From NCBI GenBank assembly GCA_040876265.1, contig JBBDPN010000002.1, positions 3,954 to 67,953 of the forward strand: 64,000 bases of DNA, given 5' to 3'. The translations under genes were made by a program, and so were the position numbers. The notes under the pieces are model-generated. The model saw only the letters and a list, made by a program, of their open reading frames with translations. It made no database searches and was not told the DNA's origin. This stretch comes from Candidatus Woykebacteria bacterium. Lineage in GTDB: Bacteria > Patescibacteriota > Microgenomatia > Woykebacterales > RBG-16-39-9b. Of the stretch, positions 5,555 to 46,650 are shown in pieces (within the stretch, counting starts at the first letter, position 1; each line of letters begins with the position of its first letter).

Positions 5555-5577
5555 CCCACCAACCCAAGAAAGGGACG

Positions 5578-5591
5578 GACCCTGTCAAGGG

Positions 5592-10478: not shown

Positions 10479-10848
10479 TGAAATCGCAACTCAACCTTTT
10501 CTCTTAGCCGCCTTACGAGCAGCACCTCAACTTACCGGCCTTGGAATAGTCAGCGTCAAAAATTGAGGTTTTCGAGCCGACTTAAAAAGGAATTTTTCAC
10601 GTCCGATCCGCCAACTGGCGGAGAGTTTGAAAAATTAGGTGAGAAAACCGATATTTTAGCTGGAGGTTCCCGGCCGGCAGTTTTGGCTCCACCTTTGCTG
10701 TCAAAGGTGGAAAAAGAAATCTTTCCACGAATTTGACAAGCAAGCAGACTACAGGTTAAAATTAAGGGTATAAATAGGTATAATTATACCCTGCTAAGGG
10801 TACAATACGCAGGGTGTAATCCTGCGGATTATACCTTAGGACCTACCC

Positions 10849-14119: not shown

Positions 14120-14126
14120 CAAACCT

Positions 14127-14146
14127 ACACACCAGGGGTGTCAATA
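14127..14146. repeat. REP2 palindromic element ACACACCAGGGGTGTCAATA, 3' of RAYT gene 2
   Basis: Contains hairpin ACACC-AGG-GGTGT. An identical copy lies at 14818-14837 on the other side of the RAYT gene. Confidence 0.75.
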
Positions 14147-14150
14147 TAGA

Positions 14151-14801
14151 TTAATCAAGGGTTTGATGTTTGGCAAGCTCCAAGGTTCTACCATAATCTG
14201 CTTGGTCCAAGACGAAAGATCTGTATTTATTTTTAGAAGCTCCTGGAAATAAATCCAGGGTCAATTCGGTATTCACTACACCCAAAGAATTTTTTCCTAT
14301 ATACTCCAGATACGACGACCACTCGTAGGTTGACAAATCATTAGTAAGTCCCCCTACAAGTGGGTTCAAATGAATATATCTCGAAACGTGAAGCAGTAGC
14401 TCGTCAGATTCGATTTTCACTGCTTTAAACGGCCCTTGGAACAGGTGCCCGACTCTCTTGTGTTTTGTGTTGAAATATTTTGTATAACTATTTGACAACC
14501 TGCCAATAAAAGTAGATATTCCATTTTCGGTGTTTTGCCGAAGGAGCATGTGAAAATGGTTTGGCATCAAGCAGTAAACGTAGATTTCAACCAGATTTTG
14601 AGCCGGTGTTTCGTGATCTTTTATCATTTTATGGGATTTAAAAGAAAATCTAGTTGGAACATTGGTTTTTAGATAATAAATCAAAGTATTATAAAAACGA
14701 CGATAGTCTCTTCTATCGTAAAAAATATTTCTTTTTTCTACACCCCTATTGAAAACGTGATAAATACCCCCATCTCCCAATGCTTCTTTACGATATGGCA
14801 T
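14151..14801 (-). CDS. REP-associated tyrosine transposase (RAYT) copy 2
   Basis: IYHVFNRG, YCLMPNHFHMLL (HUH), RVGHLFQGPF and YIHLNP blocks. Paralog of 1292..1981 at about 50% identity by eye. Confidence 0.75.
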   Translation of the reverse strand: MPYRKEALGDGGIYHVFNRGVEKRNIFYDRRDYRRFYNTLIYYLKTNVPTRFSFKSHKMIKDHETPAQNLVEIYVYCLMPNHFHMLLRQNTENGISTFIGRLSNSYTKYFNTKHKRVGHLFQGPFKAVKIESDELLLHVSRYIHLNPLVGGLTNDLSTYEWSSYLEYIGKNSLGVVNTELTLDLFPGASKNKYRSFVLDQADYGRTLELAKHQTLD

Positions 14802-14817
14802 ACCTATAATTTAAACT

Positions 14818-14837
14818 CACACACCAGGGGTGTCAAT
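14818..14837. repeat. REP2 palindromic element, 5' of RAYT gene 2
   Basis: CACACACCAGGGGTGTCAATA, a direct repeat of 14127-14146. Confidence 0.75.
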
Positions 14838-14904
14838 ACAACATTTTGATCAGACTCAAAACAAGGATGGTCTCCAAAAAGATAACTCTGGGGAAAACTA
14901 GCCC

Positions 14905-29026: not shown

Positions 29027-29079
29027 GTATTGTTTAAGTAAACCTACCTTTCCATAAGAATAAGAAGTAGAAACATTAT

Positions 29080-29165
29080 ATCTCACCAGAGAAACAATCG
29101 CGAGATGTAATCTTGCGATTATATCTCGCCAGAGAAAAAAGCGCGAGATGTAATCTTGCGATTAT
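29080..29165. repeat. Two perfect-length tandem 43-nt repeats (ATCTCRCCAGAGAAAMAAKCGCGAGATGTAATCTTGCGATTAT) in the rpsA leader, downstream of 5S
   Basis: Units at 29080-29122 and 29123-29165 differ at 4 positions. Each unit contains an imperfect hairpin (AATCGCGAG...CTTGCGATT). Confidence 0.7.
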
Positions 29166-29532: not shown

Positions 29533-29777
29533 TTGAGTTAGTCGTCAGTTGTAAGTTGTAAGCAACTTAACAACTAACCCAAAACCGTTTTTCTTACAAC
29601 TTAGAAATTAAATCTTATAACTAAGTCCTGCACCCTGAAAACTGGATAGAAGTATTTTGGATCTGATGTGATCTTAGAGAACGGAGCACTATTGAAACAA
29701 AGATTTCAATAGTAGCGTAGTTCTCGCAGATCGCAACTGATCCTAAGGATCTTTTACGATCTGTTAGTACGGCTTAG

Positions 29778-32660
<2,883 letters not shown>

Positions 32661-32933: not shown

Positions 32934-33241
32934 GCGCAAGCACAAGGCGCTATTCTAGCAATATTAAATTTTGGTGTCTAGAGGGAACTTTAGGTTGGAG
33001 GTGAATTACCTACGCTTCTACGAAGTGAGTAAGAAACAAATATAAGTTTTGCGTAAATCACTTGCCTAAAATCCCTCCTGTGAATGATCCTTCGACGCTG
33101 CTCAGGATCACCCCGAGCTTGCCGAAGGGTGAGAATAATTCACTCATCAACCGCAATATAGCACCAATTTGGGCTTCCGTCAAGGTAGAGACAGACCAGT
33201 TAGCACTCTTGAAAAGTGCTTTGCTAATTTTTAGCCCACGC

Positions 33242-33300
33242 TAGTGGTCGCAGCACGCAAGAGTATCTAAATAATGAGTTTCTAACGAAATTATTTAGTT
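33242..33300 (-). promoter_or_regulatory. Hairpin (CTAAATAAT..ATTATTTAG) followed by box TAYTCTTGCG..GCGACCACTA, spacer copy; boxB/boxA-like antitermination candidate
   Basis: The same two-part element recurs at 37357-37435 upstream of 16S. It lies upstream of tRNA-Ala/23S in the sense orientation. Confidence 0.4.
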
Positions 33301-33380
33301 ACGGAGCGGGTTTAGCAACAGCGCAGCACGCGGAGTAGCTGGCTTTGAGCGCTAGCGAAACGGCATAAGCTACGAGCGGG

Positions 33381-33734
33381 CTATCTGTGGCTTTCGTTGA
33401 GGATCTTCCAGTTCCAGTTTCTTTTTTTGTTGGAGCCGATTTTCTTGATGATGGCTTTTTCGAGGTCAATTTTCAATGATCCAGAAAGATGTAGTAATCG
33501 TTGGAGTACGTCGCCAAGCTCTTCTTCAAAACCACCTTTGCCTTTAATTTTTTTGTGGCGATAAGCCTCATAAGCTTCGGAGATTTCGCTGTGAAGCAAG
33601 GCTATCTTTTCCGGCACGCTTATATCTTTCCGACTTGTGCCAAAACCTTTTTCCCGGGCTTGTTCCATAACGAGTTCCGTTAATTGTTTCAGGGTAAGAT
33701 TTTTCACGAAGGTATTATATACCCGTAAATCCAA
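33381..33734 (-). CDS. MazG-like nucleoside triphosphate pyrophosphohydrolase domain protein, encoded inside the rRNA spacer
   Basis: KIALLHSEISEAYEAYR ... EELGDVLQRLLHL matches the MazG/NTP-PPase helix pair with the EExxE/ExxD metal ligands. Same strand as the rRNAs. Confidence 0.55.
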   Translation of the reverse strand: MDLRVYNTFVKNLTLKQLTELVMEQAREKGFGTSRKDISVPEKIALLHSEISEAYEAYRHKKIKGKGGFEEELGDVLQRLLHLSGSLKIDLEKAIIKKIGSNKKRNWNWKILNESHR

Positions 33735-34009
33735 TCGCGAACTTGGTCTGGATCATAAAAACTTCCATTAAGAATAAAATAATGTGTCTTGGGAAATTCA
33801 AGAATAGTGTCATTAATTAATTCAAGCTCGTTTTCTATCGAACCAAAAAAAGATTCGCAGGGTCTTACCCTGTGAGTAAAATGATACCGCCCAAGAGAGT
33901 GTATTTTGATAGTCATATGATTCTCCATGTGAGAAATTTTGGTACCCATAACTATATTATACAAATCTTATCTGACCCATTGAGTTCATCAAAAAAAAAG
34001 GGGGGGGGA

Positions 34010-34384
34010 TTAAAACAAGGTTTCGGGTTTGACCCTGTGTTTAATCAAGCATTCATTGTAAAAAGCGTTTATTTCATCTGGTGTTTTCAACCCACCTTTT
34101 AACTGGATGTAGCTATAATAATCTGTAATGCCACCAACGTTAGGTATCAATTCCGGCTCGTAAATAGCTGCATTCAAGGGTCTGTTGTCAGCAATTTTCG
34201 CTTTTTTTCTAAATTCGCTTATACAGATTTGCCTTACCTCCACTGGTCTCCATTCAAACCAATAGAAACTACCAATCAAAAATAATGTTATTGAGGCTAA
34301 AGATACTGATAAAAAGATGGTCTTAGATTTGTTCATAAATATTTTTGAAAATATGGTGGGCGCGGATGGGATAAACCGCTCCAT
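34010..34384 (-). CDS. Small membrane-anchored hypothetical protein inside the rRNA spacer
   Basis: 124-aa ORF with one N-terminal TM helix (TIFLSVSLASITLFLIGSFYWF). On the same strand as the rRNAs. No recognisable family. Confidence 0.3.
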   Translation of the reverse strand: MERFIPSAPTIFSKIFMNKSKTIFLSVSLASITLFLIGSFYWFEWRPVEVRQICISEFRKKAKIADNRPLNAAIYEPELIPNVGGITDYYSYIQLKGGLKTPDEINAFYNECLIKHRVKPETLF

Positions 34385-34501
34385 AATTCGAAACTTTCAG
34401 TTTCTTAAGTATTCCCGCGTTTTGCGACCACGCTAAGCGTGGGCTACGAACCTGGGACCCCTACATTAGACGCAACTAAAGCTGCTATCTTTTGCGATTC
34501 A

Positions 34502-34577
34502 TGGTGCGCGCGCATGGATTCGAACCATGGACCCCTACATTATCAGTGTAGTGCTCTAACCACTGAGCTACGCGCGC
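34502..34577 (-). tRNA. tRNA-Ile (anticodon GAU) in the 16S-23S spacer
   Basis: Reverse complement GCGCGCGTAGCTCAGTGGTTAGAGCACTACACTGATAATGTAGGGGTCCATGGTTCGAATCCATGCGCGCGCACCA. Anticodon loop is CUGAUAA. Confidence 0.85.
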
Positions 34578-34852: not shown

Positions 34853-34996
34853 CCTTCCACCAAAGTGGTGGGTGACTTAGTCTTGCCGTGAGAGCAAGAC
34901 CATAGAGCCATAAATATCGTAGCTCTGATTGCTCCTTTTGTCTCCCATACTTGGCAACCCTCCGATTTAATCGGAGTTTACCTAAATATAAAAAGA

Positions 34997-36490
<1,494 letters not shown>

Positions 36491-36864
36491 AAGATCGCTC
36501 CGTACTTCCCCACTCTTTGTAAAGGGCGGGTTCGGTACTCTCGCGTTCTGCGCTCTGCAAAGCAGAGCTTAGAAAAGTTGATCAGTTGTTCAGAATTGAC
36601 GTTCTTTTCCTACTTACATTGTCCTTGCGGCAACTGTAAGAAGGGTTCTTGCTACATGTTGAATTGTCCTCCGATTTGATCGGAGAGCAATTTGTTAAAT
36701 TGTCAAAGTGCTTGATTGGTATGTTCTCCAACGAAAAAGAGCTGGCACAAACCGAGCTCTTGCAAAGGGTCCAAATGTGCACTCAAAAATAAGTTTACAT
36801 ACCAATTCTCATTTCCGAACTCATTTTAGTTTAAAAATTATACTCTGTCAAGGGACAGCGGGTA

Positions 36865-42474: not shown

Positions 42475-43052
42475 GTGGCTAATCCGAAGAAACTAAAGAT
42501 GAAATAGATAATGGTGATGGTCAAGAAAGTGCCGATGGTAATTTCGGTAATATCGTGCGCCTTTAGGTAAAACCGTGACCAAGCCACCAGAGGTAAAAGT
42601 AGGACCAAATAAAAGAGCTCCACCGATACAGCTAGTATCGCAGTGATCACCATTACCGTAACAAGCTCCATGTGAACTGAAATTTTGAAAGTAGAAGCTA
42701 AAAGTAAGTTAACCACGCCCAAAGCGAGAAATACCAACCCTAGAGCTACTATCAACCGCGGTGCCTCGAAGTAAAAAGCCGCTAGAGAAGCTACCGATGC
42801 CAGTAAAACCCAAGCGATATACGCGTTTCTTCTCTCTGCTCCCTTTGGTGACCAAAGTGAGGAAACCTTTCCTTTTTTATATTGGTAGTAAAGTACTGCG
42901 GCCGGCAGTGCCGCCACGAAAAAGGTAACTATCGCCAAAAGTACTTTTGCTGAAACTGAAATTTGCTGAACGGAAATGGCCAAGATAGCGGTAACAAAAG
43001 CAGTAAAAACCGGATTGAATATCTTTGTTACCGCAGCGGCAAAGAGGTGCAT
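42468..43052 (-). CDS. Polytopic membrane protein (about 6 TM), unknown function
   Basis: 194 aa, hydrophobic throughout. Preceded by repeat copy A. Confidence 0.45.
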   Translation of the reverse strand: MHLFAAAVTKIFNPVFTAFVTAILAISVQQISVSAKVLLAIVTFFVAALPAAVLYYQYKKGKVSSLWSPKGAERRNAYIAWVLLASVASLAAFYFEAPRLIVALGLVFLALGVVNLLLASTFKISVHMELVTVMVITAILAVSVELFYLVLLLPLVAWSRFYLKAHDITEITIGTFLTITIIYFIFSFFGLATF

Positions 43053-43072
43053 GACCCAATTTTATCATATCC

Positions 43073-43252
43073 GCCTTACGAGCACAGCCGTCTTGGACTG
43101 GCAAAAATGCGAAGAGGAAACGGAAACTGAACCTGAGCTTGTCGAAGGTGAATTTCCGAGGAAGTCCCGAGTATGTTTGCCTCAGTTCAAAGGCTAGCGC
43201 AGTCGGCGGCCGCTTTGGTGCCACCTTTGCGGCCAAAGGTGGCAAAGAAAAT
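43073..43252. repeat. ~180-nt repeat element, copy A (conserved 55-nt block + variable middle + CCACCTTTGCGGCCAAAGGTGG hairpin)
   Basis: Near-identical 55-mer GAGGAAACGGAAACTGAACCTGAGCTTGTCGAAGGTGAATTTCCGAGGAAGTCCC and terminal hairpin are shared with 46093-46270. Confidence 0.7.
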
Positions 43253-43262
43253 TACTCTTAGA

Positions 43263-43541
43263 TTAATATCTGACTTCAAAGCCGCGAAACTCGCTGGTTG
43301 CTTTTTCCCAGCTGGTTTCGACCCTTTCTACTTTTGCAAAAGATGGTCCTTGTTTCACCCACTGGACCAACTGCGCGAGTTTCTCTTTTTCTCCCTCGGC
43401 CACTATTTGCACGCTACCATCGGAAGCATTCATCACCCAGCCGCGCAGGTCTAGATCTTGGGCTGTTTCAACCGTCCGAAAACGAAAACCCACCCCATGC
43501 ACGTCTCCTATTACTTTGATCGAGATTCGCATTTGATCCAT
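43263..43541 (-). CDS. acyP: Acylphosphatase
   Basis: VIGDVHGVGFRF (VxGxVQGVxFR motif). Length 92 aa. Confidence 0.8.
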   Translation of the reverse strand: MDQMRISIKVIGDVHGVGFRFRTVETAQDLDLRGWVMNASDGSVQIVAEGEKEKLAQLVQWVKQGPSFAKVERVETSWEKATSEFRGFEVRY

Positions 43542-44170
43542 TTTGTGTAGATTATAGCAGTGGAAGGGTAGATAACATTAGAAAAACAGAAGGGTCCCGG
43601 CACGCTGGCTGCGTGTTGGTCCGAGACCCTGACGTTTTAACCAAATTGGTTTTTATTTTTTCGGTGCCAAAGGGTCCTTACGGACTCGCTCTGGCGTAGA
43701 CCATGTACATCCCTCCTCTCAGGGCTCAGCAGCCTTTCGCTTCGACCTCTCCTACCTAGATGGTTACTAGACTCGGAGCGCTGCTGGCAAGTGATTGGCC
43801 CTTCCGTGACCTGTGGTCAGGGAAGGTGGCGGATCCCGATCGCTCAGAACCGGCTGGTTGACTTGTCGTGACACCGGTTAGACGGGCTTCGGGATCTGGC
43901 GTCGGCGCCGTCGATCAGGTGTCGATGTTGCCGGCGCGGGAGATGTCCGGGCCCACGTCGTCGTTGAGGCCGGCGTCGAAGCCCTTGAGCTTTATGCAAG
44001 TCTCGCCGCAGCTGGCGATCGGCGGGCTGTTCGAGTAGAGCATTTCTGCACCTACCTTTCTTCCTTGGCTGAAACAGCATGTGAGCAAAAGATTTTGCCC
44101 AGACCACTTCAGCAAAAAATCCGATGGGAGTATTTTAGCAAACTAGCAAGGCCCAGTCAATCCCATAATA

Positions 44171-44551
44171 CTAGAGGTTGATGGTGTGAGTGAGTTCTGT
44201 CACGAGCGGTAAGTACCATTTATTGCCTTTTATAGCCTTATACGCACCGTAAACAAGAACTGCGTAGATGACCACCGCTAAAAACATTTTTAGATAACCT
44301 GGCAGAAGAAGTAAAAGTACTATGGCGATCAGTAAAATTACCAAAGCCTGGCGGGCGTGAAAAGAGACAAATTCACTGTTGTTTTTTCGCAGTACCAAAA
44401 CAGCTGCGGAAATAAAGGGGACGTATGAGGCACACGCCACCCACGTTTCCTCCCCAGAGTAAGTTCGGACTAGAGTTTCGCTCTGGCCATGGGCGGCAAA
44501 CTGGTTCTTCAAATAATTCCTTACACTGTTGAAAGAATCTTCAAATAGCAT
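44171..44551 (-). CDS. Small membrane protein, DUF4870-like (FHARQ motif), paralog of 46273..46650
   Basis: FVSFHARQALVILL plus two TM helices. The paralog has FAQFHAKQGVVLFA. Confidence 0.45.
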   Translation of the reverse strand: MLFEDSFNSVRNYLKNQFAAHGQSETLVRTYSGEETWVACASYVPFISAAVLVLRKNNSEFVSFHARQALVILLIAIVLLLLLPGYLKMFLAVVIYAVLVYGAYKAIKGNKWYLPLVTELTHTINL

Positions 44552-44584
44552 AATTCCTCTTCTTATATTAGAATTATATTCTTT

Positions 44585-46057
44585 TTAATCGAAAAACCCA
44601 ACTTGACCTTCGGCTTGTTTGACGATCTGTTTTGGTTTTTCACTGCTAGGGATACCAGCTTCCGAAGGCCAAATTTTTACTACGCCAAACACTCCATCGT
44701 ACCCTGGCTCTATCACAATATCACCCTCCCTCACCTTCCTCACTCCCTCGACTATTCTGTGGACAGAAGCCTGTTTTTCCAAATCAGAGAGAGGCGCTTT
44801 CATCAAGATATTCATCTCAGAATCAAAATAGTTTACTAACTTCTTGTATTCCTCAATGACTTTTGGCGAAGTCACCGGCGAGCCAACAGCCTCGGATATT
44901 ATTTCTATCAAAGGCACGAGGTTTTTATATTTTGGCCGGTTTCCTGGAGTAAAACCCTCTGGTCTATTTTTATCCGCCAGCTGCTCAACCCGGTGCATTA
45001 CGCCGATGGTTAACCGCCGTCTGCATTTTGGACAAATCATTCCTGCCTTAGCAGTCTCGGACGGCGAGTGACGAACGTTGCAGTTTCTGTGCCCAGTGAA
45101 ATGATATTTACCTTCTTCCGGAAAAAATTCAAGAGTAAATGCTACTTTTGACTCCCTGCTCTTTTGCGAGTGGGCTTGATCCAATTTGTAGATCGCTTCG
45201 CGCTCTGCGACCACTTCGTGGGCTAAGGTCTCCACAGGAAGTCCGCGTTTACCACGCTCGGATAAAGCATTTTGCGATTCATCGCGGAACCTTTTTGGAG
45301 ACGAATTAGATTGTTGATCGCCGAGCACAGCCGACTGACTTTTCAACGCTGCCAGCAACCCATCGTAGCTAAAATCGCTGTCAAAAACGGTCAGCTCTCG
45401 GCTCATCTTTGGTGCGCTGTGAGCATCGGAAAAGGAAACTATTGATCGGCCATCAAGCTCTGGTATTCGCCAATTCATCGCCGGATCGCTAGACAATCCC
45501 GTTTCAATAGCGTAAATATATTTGGCTAGGTCTCCAAAAGCTTCATCAATGCTGTCAAAACCAGAGTTAGAACCGTACAAACTAAACCACGGCGTCCAAG
45601 CGTGGGCCGGGATAAAAATAGTCTTTTCGTTTACTTGCAATGCCATTTCGAGAAGTTGCTTTGCACTTAACCCAACGATTGGCCGCCCATCTGCTTTTAA
45701 GTTTCCAATTTTGCCAAGAGCTTCATTAAATTTTTCTACGCCACTTTTTTCCGAAAAATAAAGCAAACAGTGGATCCGCCTTACCTTTCCCCCTTGGGAA
45801 TAGATGCAGGAAATCTCAGTACCCAAAACGTAATGAGCGCCGCCGTATTCATAAAAACCGGAAGATTCGGATTCTTTTAATTTCTTCTTGGTTTCTTCCC
45901 ACCAAACCGGATGAGTAAAATCTGCACTGGAAAGAAGGCTAATGCCTTTGTATTTGGCCCATTCTGAAAGTGTATCGAAGTTTAAATTGCGGCTGGTGGC
46001 ACGAGCGTAAGCGGAATGAAGGTGTAAGTCGGCGACGAATTTAGCCATCATCGCCAT
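44585..46057 (-). CDS. Endonuclease Q-like (PHP-type metal site + C-terminal zinc finger) nuclease
   Basis: N-terminus ADLHLHSAYARA...GISLLSSADFTHPVWW matches EndoQ DLHIHS...GTGD..HP.W. C-terminal CPKCRRRL Zn finger. Confidence 0.5.
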   Translation of the reverse strand: MAMMAKFVADLHLHSAYARATSRNLNFDTLSEWAKYKGISLLSSADFTHPVWWEETKKKLKESESSGFYEYGGAHYVLGTEISCIYSQGGKVRRIHCLLYFSEKSGVEKFNEALGKIGNLKADGRPIVGLSAKQLLEMALQVNEKTIFIPAHAWTPWFSLYGSNSGFDSIDEAFGDLAKYIYAIETGLSSDPAMNWRIPELDGRSIVSFSDAHSAPKMSRELTVFDSDFSYDGLLAALKSQSAVLGDQQSNSSPKRFRDESQNALSERGKRGLPVETLAHEVVAEREAIYKLDQAHSQKSRESKVAFTLEFFPEEGKYHFTGHRNCNVRHSPSETAKAGMICPKCRRRLTIGVMHRVEQLADKNRPEGFTPGNRPKYKNLVPLIEIISEAVGSPVTSPKVIEEYKKLVNYFDSEMNILMKAPLSDLEKQASVHRIVEGVRKVREGDIVIEPGYDGVFGVVKIWPSEAGIPSSEKPKQIVKQAEGQVGFFD

Positions 46058-46092
46058 ATTCTAGCATAAAGTCCGTGGTGGATAAATTCAAA

Positions 46093-46270
46093 TCGCTGTG
46101 CGAGCACGGCGTTTTTGAACTTGCTGAAAAGCAGAGAGGAAACTGGAACTGAACCTGAGCTTGTCGAAGGTGAATTCCAGAGGAAGTCCCAAAGCTTTTC
46201 AGCTTAGTCCAACAGTCAGCACAGCCCAGCGACAGTTTTGGTTCCACCTTTGCTGCCAAAGGTGGAAACA
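46093..46270. repeat. ~180-nt repeat element, copy B
   Basis: GAGGAAACTGGAACTGAACCTGAGCTTGTCGAAGGTGAATTCCAGAGGAAGTCCC ... TTTTGGTTCCACCTTTGCTGCCAAAGGTGGAAA. Immediately 5' (minus sense) of the EndoQ-like gene. Confidence 0.7.
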
Positions 46271-46272
46271 AC

Positions 46273-46650
46273 TTAGAGATTGATTTTACTCGCAATATCT
46301 CCAATTACAGGAAGGTTGTACCTTTCACCTCCGTGAGCTTTAATGAAACCCATTATAGAGGCGACCAAGAAAACCAGACTAACCAACCACCAAACAAAGA
46401 ACAGGAAACCAAGTATCATGAACAGCGCGTACAAAATTATTTCGCCAGCAAATAGGACCACGCCTTGCTTGGCGTGAAACTGAGCAAATTCGCTGTCTTT
46501 CTTCGCGAAAAGGACAACTACTGAAATAACTCCGATGTAACTAAGTGCTGCTATCATGTTGTCATCACCGCCGCTTTTTGCAGCTGGTGTTGGTTGTTGT
46601 GAGGCTGGTTGTTGTGGAGACTGAGTAGTTTCTTCTTGCAGAAAAATCAC
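46273..46650 (-). CDS. Small membrane protein, DUF4870-like, paralog of 44171..44551
   Basis: FHAKQ motif plus two TM helices. Gln/Pro-rich N-terminus. Confidence 0.45.
   Translation of the reverse strand: MIFLQEETTQSPQQPASQQPTPAAKSGGDDNMIAALSYIGVISVVVLFAKKDSEFAQFHAKQGVVLFAGEIILYALFMILGFLFFVWWLVSLVFLVASIMGFIKAHGGERYNLPVIGDIASKINL

Follow-up and report, generated by a model that had tools for sequence, protein, structure and literature searches.

Modular hairpins between genes of a Candidatus Woykebacteria genome: candidate members of a dispersed palindromic repeat family with a widely shared apex motif

What is a sequence of about 180 nucleotides (nt) that stands twice between genes of Candidatus Woykebacteria? 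The question is raised by a 64-kb stretch of GenBank assembly GCA_040876265.1 (contig JBBDPN010000002.1, positions 3,954 to 67,953, here the window), in which a preliminary description had noticed two such copies, A and B, and had proposed either a cis-regulatory RNA leader or a small non-autonomous element. With about as much belief as doubt, we regard A, B and a related copy, C, as a family of modular hairpin-forming intergenic repeats of the repetitive extragenic palindromic (REP), bacterial interspersed mosaic element (BIME) and enterobacterial repetitive intergenic consensus (ERIC) kind. Compared as sequences, the copies and their relatives demonstrate structure, compensatory changes, modularity, dispersal to different loci and variable orientation; the mobilising enzyme and any benefit to the host are inferred. 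Coverage of the genome is the window itself, and it was compared with about 55 other fetched loci (relatives or loci bearing the motif described below, coded L0nn). Taxonomic labels of metagenome-assembled genomes (MAGs) were accepted as given.

Both copies were found where they had been reported. A repeat search of the window aligned 43072-43202 with 46094-46224 at 75% identity, and a profile built from homologues (nhmmer) delimited the copies to 43068-43247 and 46091-46273. The shared near-identical 55-mer was likewise recovered; inside it lies an exact 25-mer (GAACCTGAGCTTGTCGAAGGTGAAT) that occurs in the window at 43129 and 46151 only and is expected zero times in shuffles. Each copy fills the space that separates the stop codon of one minus-strand gene from the start codon of the next, in agreement with the placement first described: A lies between the stop of an acylphosphatase gene (43263) and the start of a gene for a 194-aa membrane protein (43052), and B between the stop of a DUF4870 gene (46273) and the start of an EndoQ-family gene (46057), the identities of these flanking genes being from Pfam. 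A Candidatus Woykebacteria MAG has an annotated protein with 100% identity to this EndoQ-family product.

The anatomy of the element differs from the one first proposed. Either strand of A, B and their homologues at L044, L006 and L018 folds into a single long hairpin with the 55-mer at its tip, and the layout is a ~140-nt imperfect hairpin (the rod), then the linker GGCCGC-TTTGG and then a separate hairpin 2. The 55-mer, once taken for an end of the element, is the apex of the ~140-nt hairpin; the supposed divergent middle of ~50 nt forms the 3' arm and has its pairing partner in a stretch 5' of the 55-mer that has diverged just as much; and what had been read as conserved ends around a variable core is a conserved apex on variable, complementary arms. 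Watson–Crick pairs between the arms number 41-50 per rod (45 in rod A), and the left base of rod B (46094-46111) can alternatively form a small local hairpin that is kept in L052 and L053. The rod tip is a 27-nt module, CUGA-ACCU-GAGCUUGUCGA-AGGU-GAAU, in which a 4-bp stem beside a UGA/GAA internal loop closes a loop of 11-13 nt. In A this module carries the loop motif UGAGC-UU-GUCGAA, and the internal loop has the potential to form tandem sheared G-A pairs.

Covariation, which the preliminary description had suggested as a check, was assessed for the rod with RNAalifold on 5-6 homologues and revealed 10-11 pairs with both sides changed; changes of this kind were also found in hairpin 2. The 55-mers of A and B differ at four positions, which make up two compensatory base pairs (CGGAAA/TTTCCG vs CTGGAA/TTCCAG), and the arms provide further examples, such as GGCAAAAATGC/GTATGTTTGCC in A vs GCTGAAAAGC/GCTTTTCAGC in B. 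Full rod homologues are present in L006/L021 and L018 (Curtissbacteria), L030 and L044; that in L044, found via synteny, is the ortholog of copy A and stands ahead of that genome's version of the 194-aa gene. The terminal hairpin reported for both copies and a third site also stands: CCACCTTTG-N4-CAAAGGTGG occurs three times in the window (10689, 43221 and 46244), with 0.03 occurrences expected. This hairpin 2 has 22-30 nt, 9-11 bp and a 4-nt loop behind the conserved 5' linker, which includes GGCCGCTTTGG. Among six sequences, 4/11 of its pairs are changed on both sides and 93.9% of cells are paired, vs 83% in shuffles and 36-59% with the partner slid, and at the B site, where hairpin 2 is orthologous in the window and L053, stem pairing is kept through compensatory changes. 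From the compensatory changes in rod and hairpin 2 we conclude that the ability to form hairpins is constrained.

A plain segmental duplication of local sequence, devoid of structural or functional meaning, could account for the fact that just two rod copies are seen, 3 kb apart, and a simple recent duplication without covariation had been named at the outset as the finding that would undo the proposal. We consider this next to negligible in probability because homologues occur in other genomes and metagenomes (L006, L018, L030, L044). In addition, A and B are only 75% identical, yet both keep the ~140-nt hairpin via compensatory changes, and the flanking genes are not duplicated.

The mismatches of the rods contain no strand signal, 11 being G:T and 8 A:C (that is, G-U on the plus vs the minus strand); one pair is G:T in A, A:C in B, G-C in L044 and A-T in L006. 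Folding energy yields no strand signal either, as the more stable strand varies from copy to copy. This symmetry is the pattern of palindromic DNA elements, and not that expected of an RNA made from one strand. Copies A, B and C have identical absolute orientation, though gene direction differs locally. In window 1-64000, GC skew is negative everywhere but in the first 4-kb bin, and the rRNA operon is read from the minus strand, which makes this probably the leading strand.

The features are collected in Table 1.

Table 1. Positions in the window of the element copies, their parts and the related features discussed in the text.
Feature	Positions	Strand	Details
Element copy A (rod, linker, hairpin 2)	43068-43252	+	Repeat search, fold, nhmmer
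Rod A, ~139-nt imperfect hairpin	43071-43209	none	Closing stem CCGCC 43071-43075 / GGCGG 43205-43209
55-mer of rod A, central	43114-43168	+	GAGGAAAC-CGGAAA stem, UGA/GAA internal loop, apex hairpin, UUUCCG-AGGAAGUCCC
Apex module of A	43127-43153	+	CTGA-ACCT-GAGCTTGTCGA-AGGT-GAAT; stem 43131-43134 / 43146-43149
Linker and hairpin 2 of A	43208-43243	none	Linker GGCCGCTTTGGT; hairpin GCCACCTTTG-CGGC-CAAAGGTGGC
Element copy B (rod, linker, hairpin 2)	46091-46273	+	Repeat search, fold, nhmmer
Rod B, ~142-nt imperfect hairpin	46092-46233	none	ATCGCTG 46092-46098 / CAGCGAC 46227-46233
55-mer of copy B	46136-46190	+	Apex module 46149-46175
Hairpin 2 of B	46242-46267	none	TTCCACCTTTG-CTGC-CAAAGGTGGAA
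Element copy C (C-type)	10551-10716	+	~120-nt body, linker GGCCGGCAGTTTTGG, hairpin 2 (10689-10710)
Diverged inverted doublet of the apex motif, 16S-23S spacer	33080-33143	none	Enclosed by GTGAAT / ATTCAC
Y1 HUH transposase, IS200/RAYT-like, 216 aa	14151-14801	minus	Pfam Y1_Tnp 39.8 bits, cut-off 23
Second Y1 transposase, 44% identical to the first	about 1403-1948	minus	Paralogue

The third site had been described as a hairpin-only copy, which proved wrong: it is a full, related C-type element of ~165 nt, of which window 10551-10708 is 88.6% identical over 158 nt to the element of L053. Its body holds a hairpin, GAATTTTTCA...CCGCC-AACT-GGCGG...TGAAAAATT, at 10590-10637, the flanking genes are on the plus strand, and an integrase-N open reading frame (ORF) is among its neighbours. 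The C-type element occupies separate loci in the window and in L053. In the latter it stands at the B site: in the closest relative (L052/L053, EndoQ 70% identical), this site keeps the left small hairpin (CGCCGTACGAGCACGGCG) and hairpin 2, and between these conserved flanks L053 has a C-type body and no rod. In the L044 ortholog of A, GAGGAAACGGAAACTGA...GAATTTCCGAGGATGTCCC is retained, as are the outer blocks of the rod, the linker and hairpin 2, whereas the tip is swapped, with CTCGGC-GCA-GCCGGGG where the apex hairpin would be. Rods in different gene contexts may be closely similar, those in the rpmE-prfA spacer of L006 and the glyA-folD spacer of L018 differing by scattered substitutions only.

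Orthologous sites also differ in whether they contain a rod at all. The rod of the A site is present only in the window and L044 and absent in L043, L045-L049 and L055, and that of the B site is present only in the window and absent in L042-L045 and L056; the proteins of the rod-less relatives are about as far from those of the window as are the proteins of L044 (57% for the membrane protein). Orientation is antisense to the neighbouring genes in window A, window B, L044, L030 and L053 and sense in L006, L018 and window C. The proposal of a small non-autonomous element thus fits the varied contexts, the presence and absence at orthologous sites, both orientations and the long palindromes.

The other half of the original proposal, a 5' leader or riboswitch of the downstream minus-strand genes, drew on the position of the element directly upstream of two gene starts, and copy A also precedes the orthologous 194-aa gene in L044. 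Ahead of both start codons, however, at 43053-43070 and 46058-46075, are extended -10 boxes (TGnTAnAAT) that stand between element and ATG and leave no room for a leader: TGATAAAAT of the 194-aa gene ends 6 nt before the ATG, and TGCTAGAAT of the EndoQ gene directly abuts it. (The NCBI start of the EndoQ protein is the second ATG, giving 488 aa.) Similar boxes were identified in L044 (TGTTAGAAT-AAACCC-ATG for the 194-aa ortholog and TGTTAGAAT before EndoQ) and in orthologues of L042 (TGTTAAAAT), L045 (TGGTAGAAT) and L055 (TGCTACAAT), and L047 has TAAAAT without the TG; in the window and nearly all orthologues inspected the box adjoins the ATG or is at most 9 nt away. Because the extended -10 box lies at the ATG, the genes appear to have little or no leader, which would place the element beyond the promoter, upstream of it and outside the 5' untranslated region, and such boxes point to leaderless mRNAs as the norm in these Woykebacteria. 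Furthermore, the element is missing upstream of these genes in L042, L043, L045-L049, L055 and L056, that is, in most orthologous intergenic regions, its orientation is opposite in L006 and L018, and the genes beside the copies are unrelated (membrane protein, EndoQ, prfA, folD and, at C, the integrase-N ORF), and not one gene family in fixed orientation. A leader is accordingly a very improbable explanation.

The position of the elements relative to the genes on their other side raises a different possibility, namely a cis RNA element at gene ends, which would be a 3' trailer of the upstream gene and would serve as a U-tract-independent terminator or insulator, a 3' exonuclease block or an RNase III processing site that sets two adjacent transcription units apart, these roles being played by hairpin 2 and the rod. 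Hairpin 2 ends 5-19 nt ahead of the upstream stop codon in window A (19 nt), window B (5 nt, before the DUF4870 stop), L053 and L030, the element exactly fills the gap from stop codon to next promoter, hairpin 2 of the B site is retained in L053 with its pairing, and copy A is strongly conserved compared with L044. Long, near-perfect duplexes are the substrate type of RNase III. Against this, a U tract is found on neither strand after hairpin 2, where the terminator scan reports nothing and the context on both strands is T-rich before and A-rich after, though ordinary terminators exist nearby (42473-42450); this also sets hairpin 2 apart from an intrinsic terminator. In L006 and L018 the rod is turned the other way round relative to transcription than in the window copies A and B, window C and L044 have no upstream stop codon anywhere near them, G-U does not exceed A-C mismatches on either strand, and a generic hairpin role needs no sequence-specific 13-nt loop. 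We regard a gene-end RNA as a possibility of clearly lower probability than a repeat family. It is compatible with that reading, as it is for REP and ERIC, and we would suggest, equally tentatively, that the elements also behave as gene-end RNA hairpins when transcribed.

The elements are assembled from separable palindromic modules (the rod, the 27-nt apex module, and hairpin 2 with its linker), the rod arms staying complementary while their sequences drift. On the repeat reading, the modules would be non-autonomous DNA that is spread, swapped and nested via single-stranded hairpin intermediates, the route used by Y1 HUH enzymes such as IS200/RAYT-type transposases (RAYT, REP-associated tyrosine transposase). 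Once placed, they might be retained because a stable hairpin at a gene end is tolerated or of use, either in guarding the 3' end of the mRNA or in insulating one transcription unit from the next.

Two Y1 transposase genes are encoded in the window. The protein of the first scored 54 bits against the NCBIfam model REP_Tyr_transpos (REP-associated tyrosine transposase), short of the 80 bits that this model requires. Bracketing the gene at 14121-14146 and 14813-14838 are direct copies of AAAC..ACACACCAGGGGTGTCAATA, each holding an ACACC-AGG-GGTGT hairpin, as does the repeat CACACCAGGGGTGTCAATA at 14128 and 14820, and 14121-14838 looks like a compact IS200-type unit. On either side of the second gene stands TGACAAGGCCTGGCCCTGTCAAGGG (1259 and 1996); a further copy, inverted, at 2028 makes a REPIN-like doublet, and one of 76% identity lies at 5567-5591. 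The two genes show that this genome is home to hairpin-based single-strand transposition, and enzymes of this type may mobilise A, B and C.

Among known systems, the elements resemble REP/BIME and the RAYT-mobilised REPINs: all are short extragenic imperfect palindromes, often just after stop codons, that form mosaics in either orientation and inverted doublets (here of the apex motif), in a genome encoding hairpin-flanked Y1 transposases. Palindromes of about 20-40 nt outside genes are represented by hairpin 2 and the apex hairpin (19-27 nt), and all copies are intergenic. Unlike in REP systems, where the same REP stands inverted around the RAYT gene, both Y1 genes here are flanked by other, unrelated hairpins in direct orientation, and the elements have no GTAG head. 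REPs number tens to hundreds per genome; the 64 kb of the window, part of a 302-kb contig, have three copies of hairpin 2. Hairpin 2 is always single and never doubled. In size (~130-180 nt) and shape (one long imperfect hairpin), and in lying between genes of the same or different transcription units in both orientations, the elements resemble the 100-170-bp imperfect palindromes ERIC/IRU, YPAL and Correia/NEMIS. They differ from these in having no sequence similarity, a low copy number in the available sequence, a separable second hairpin and an exchangeable tip, and from Correia also in the absence of a terminal TA duplication. As is expected of miniature inverted-repeat transposable elements, terminal inverted repeats are present, the rods being palindromic throughout; the ends of L006 and L018 are AATTTTT(T)CWTTGA / TCAATGAAAAA(A)TT, and no parent insertion sequence (IS) with the same termini was found in the fetched loci. 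Stem-loops of the IS200/IS605 type have been described at the 3' ends of Borrelia genes, with compensatory changes and independent of a transposase (Delihas 2009, reviewed in PMC3184786). The elements are like these solo hairpins in being transposase-free stem-loops at gene 3' ends whose pairing is kept by compensatory changes, and unlike them in that no IS with matching end hairpins was found here.

Several observations weigh against such a repeat family. Copy number is low, with two rods and three hairpin 2 copies in 64 kb (the whole tally being three hairpin 2, two apex copies and one diverged doublet), and no further full copies were found in the window or the ~55 other loci. Copy A and its L044 ortholog are conserved far beyond neutral DNA, given proteins that are 57-63% identical, which points to selection in place and to a host function that a selfish repeat does not explain. 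Target-site duplications are not visible at the ends of A, B, L006, L018 and L044. The hairpins that flank the Y1 genes are unrelated to A, B and C, and tblastn with the Y1 transposase of the window found no Y1 gene near the apex motif in any fetched locus. Finally, the 13-nt loop is near-invariant across phyla on variable stems. Classical REPs are the reverse, with conserved stems and free loops.

Rickettsia palindromic elements provide a further comparison, as palindromic repeats in odd places, even in genes, for which the GTGGTCGCAGAGCGC family and EndoQ are the counterpart here; copies A, B and C differ from them in being intergenic and have no sequence relationship with them. The EndoQ gene (44585-46057, minus strand) has an in-frame insertion of ~58 aa (residues 244-300; DNA 45157-45328) relative to 429-aa homologues, which holds the repeat GTGGTCGCAGAGCGC at 45200-45214. 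The same repeat is present in non-coding DNA at 33244, 34417 and 37359 and is intergenic in L044, L047, L052 and L056. By analogy, the EndoQ insertion resembles the in-frame palindromic-element insertions of Rickettsia.

That the element matches nothing recognisable, as had been stated, holds for Rfam. No Rfam 15 family reached threshold in the window or in 35 related loci (both scanned at the gathering threshold), and a scan of 42800-46500 at E <= 10 gave only chance-level snoRNA-like matches overlapping the element (E > 1); the elements thus share a conserved hairpin with covariation with the structured RNAs of Rfam and belong to no family at threshold. The statement fails for the apex hairpin, which is widespread in bacteria. 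Collections were scanned once each for exact matches to a 21-22-mer of the tip, a scope that leaves the census of the element family incomplete; the scans identified 18 loci in GTDB genomes and 19 in JGI metagenomes, where about 0.3 21-mer matches would be expected by chance. The MAGs with 21-mer matches are labelled Patescibacteria, Peribacteria, Gammaproteobacteria, Chloroflexota, Planctomycetota, Rhizobium, Sulfurovum and Chitinophagaceae. Three matches are coding (L016, L017, L041) and apparently fortuitous; among the non-coding matches, the flanks of the core are at least 5/6 paired in 10/29, vs 10.6% in a mismatched-flank control. In general the tip consists of stem, UGAGC-NN-GUCGAA and stem, occurs in many phyla and is often arranged in inverted doublets.

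A G+C-rich form of the motif (CCGTTCGCCCTGAGCTTGTCGAAGGGCGAACGG), known from spurious ORF translations, was confirmed by search. A Sphingobium megaplasmid may carry it at as many as 22 places; Comamonas, Moraxella, Sinorhizobium and others have it too, and it is unannotated save for one 'hypothetical protein' call. Matches of plasmids to the AT-rich form are mostly chance coding matches, a scan of viral contigs returned one intergenic and one coding match, and E. coli genomes gave no motif match. The literature, searched with 12-13-mers and peptide translations, held no relevant mention of the motif (only primers and unrelated matches), and a search of a protein database for spurious ORFs with the translated element as query yielded no candidate. 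Hammerhead, twister, K-turn, SRP, RNase P P4, T-loop and boxA were considered for the apex by eye against their consensus sequences, and none fits. Integron attC sites were also rejected, the conserved part here being the tip and not the ends, and the neighbours being syntenic core genes.

The arrangement of the motif varies. Inverted doublets are formed by the apex motif only, in the window (33086-33130) and in L010, L011, L013, L014, L034, L038, L039 and L058, and occur in Rhizobium, Chitinophagaceae, Sphingobium and Moraxella. The window doublet consists of GATCC-TTCGACGCTGCTCA-GGATC (33086-33109) followed by ACCC-CGAGCTTGCCGAA-GGGT (33110-33130). The central positions of the loop vary freely, with UU, CU, AGC, UAA or even a complete nested copy in that place, and in L019 and L035 the motif is nested in a second copy of its own loop, CUGAGC[GAACCUGAGCUUGUCGAAGGUGA]GUCGAA. 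A homologous three-way element of Paceibacterota bears the apex module on one hairpin in L005, L015, L027 and L036 and on another in L037.

This three-way-junction repeat of ~130 nt (GGnAAUCGAAAGSC ... CCGAGMCGGGGUCGCGA ... CGAUUnCC; L005 440-560, L015, L027, L036, L037) was seen in Paceibacterota and metagenomes, downstream of tRNA genes and terminators, with two copies in one MAG. Six metagenome contigs (L020, L023, L024, L029, L031, L033) share a conserved non-coding stretch of >250 nt with the apex module central and no Rfam match, which might be a larger structured RNA. L025 (1230-1383) has, upstream of a tRNA array, a duplicate of the first 18 nt of tRNA-Thr, then a ~70-nt hairpin with the apex module and then a degenerate D-stem/anticodon-stem remnant; the whole looks like a tRNA gene disrupted in its D loop.

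The spacer that contains the window doublet separates minus-strand 16S (34996-36492) and 23S (29743-32655) rRNA genes and is long. The ~1.6 kb between its two tRNA genes (32934-34504) contain, by eye, small minus-strand ORFs and several repeat modules, and one ORF at about 33400-33710 looks by eye like a MazG-type pyrophosphohydrolase. Five copies of the palindrome ACCCCGATTAAATCGGGG(C/T)T (32044, 32506, 34959, 36035, 37399) lie in and around the rRNA operon, some of them, by coordinates, inside the 23S and 16S genes. Two tandem 43-nt units that are 93% identical (29075-29160) are located just past the 5S rRNA gene, and a weaker third copy is at 33832.

A tRNA or tmRNA lies within ~150 nt of the motif in 11 of ~30 independent loci, which bears on the possibility of an independent plus-strand small RNA gene, divergent from an AT-rich -10 region shared with the downstream minus-strand gene; rod and hairpin 2 would make up the RNA, and the apex loop would bind a conserved partner (protein or RNA). 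The motif shares the strand of the nearby tRNA or tmRNA in most tRNA-linked loci, and singleton loci with co-directional neighbours have it in sense in 8 cases and in antisense in about 5. On the plus strand, -10-like sequences (TATCAT, CATAAT, TAAATT) precede the rod by 4-6 nt in A, L044 and B, and the purine-rich tandem G-A internal loops resemble those typical of protein-binding RNA helices. These promoter-like sites are weak, however, and may be no more than the minus-strand -10 boxes read backwards; hairpin 2 has no terminator after it, the plus strand is the more stable in some copies only and has no G-U bias, a match in Rfam is absent, and inverted doublets place the loop and its complement side by side. 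In several tRNA-linked loci a canonical terminator stands between the tRNA or tmRNA and the motif, L040 too has one just upstream of the motif, and since the motif lies beyond the terminator (L019, L040, L005, L015, L027, L036) co-transcription with the tRNA or tmRNA is doubtful. The association with tRNA and tmRNA genes might instead come from spacers that are long and permissive or from hot spots of integration, and we judge a small RNA gene improbable, if less so than a leader.

The apex motif reverses the REP pattern, with a conserved loop on a variable stem, and crosses phyla where classical REPs are species- or genus-specific. On a further reading, the apex would be an undescribed functional module across bacterial phyla, serving as the site where a widely conserved factor docks or as the hairpin recognised by a very widespread single-strand transposition system. 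Here the apex is taken as a stem, often with tandem G-A mismatches, and a loop UGAGC-(2-4 nt or nested hairpin)-GUCGAA. It would have been grafted onto the tips of unrelated lineage-specific scaffolds, such as the rods of Woykebacteria and Curtissbacteria and the three-way elements of Paceibacterota near tRNAs, and would multiply as inverted doublets in Proteobacteria and Bacteroidota. We offer this as a minority view, about as probable as a gene-end RNA.

Small palindromic repeats are well studied in Proteobacteria, and we know of almost no descriptions for candidate-phyla-radiation bacteria, whose tiny genomes are usually thought poor in them. The orthologous sites described here, where exchange has proceeded module by module (tip swapped, body swapped, flanks kept), are a clean natural record of mosaic building. 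If the 13-nt loop is one motif from Patescibacteria to Sphingomonads, Moraxella and Chitinophagaceae, a common reader would be needed, whether a host factor or a transposase clade, and the motif would explain many spurious 'hypothetical proteins' with translations such as PELVEG, LSLSKG and FDKLR.

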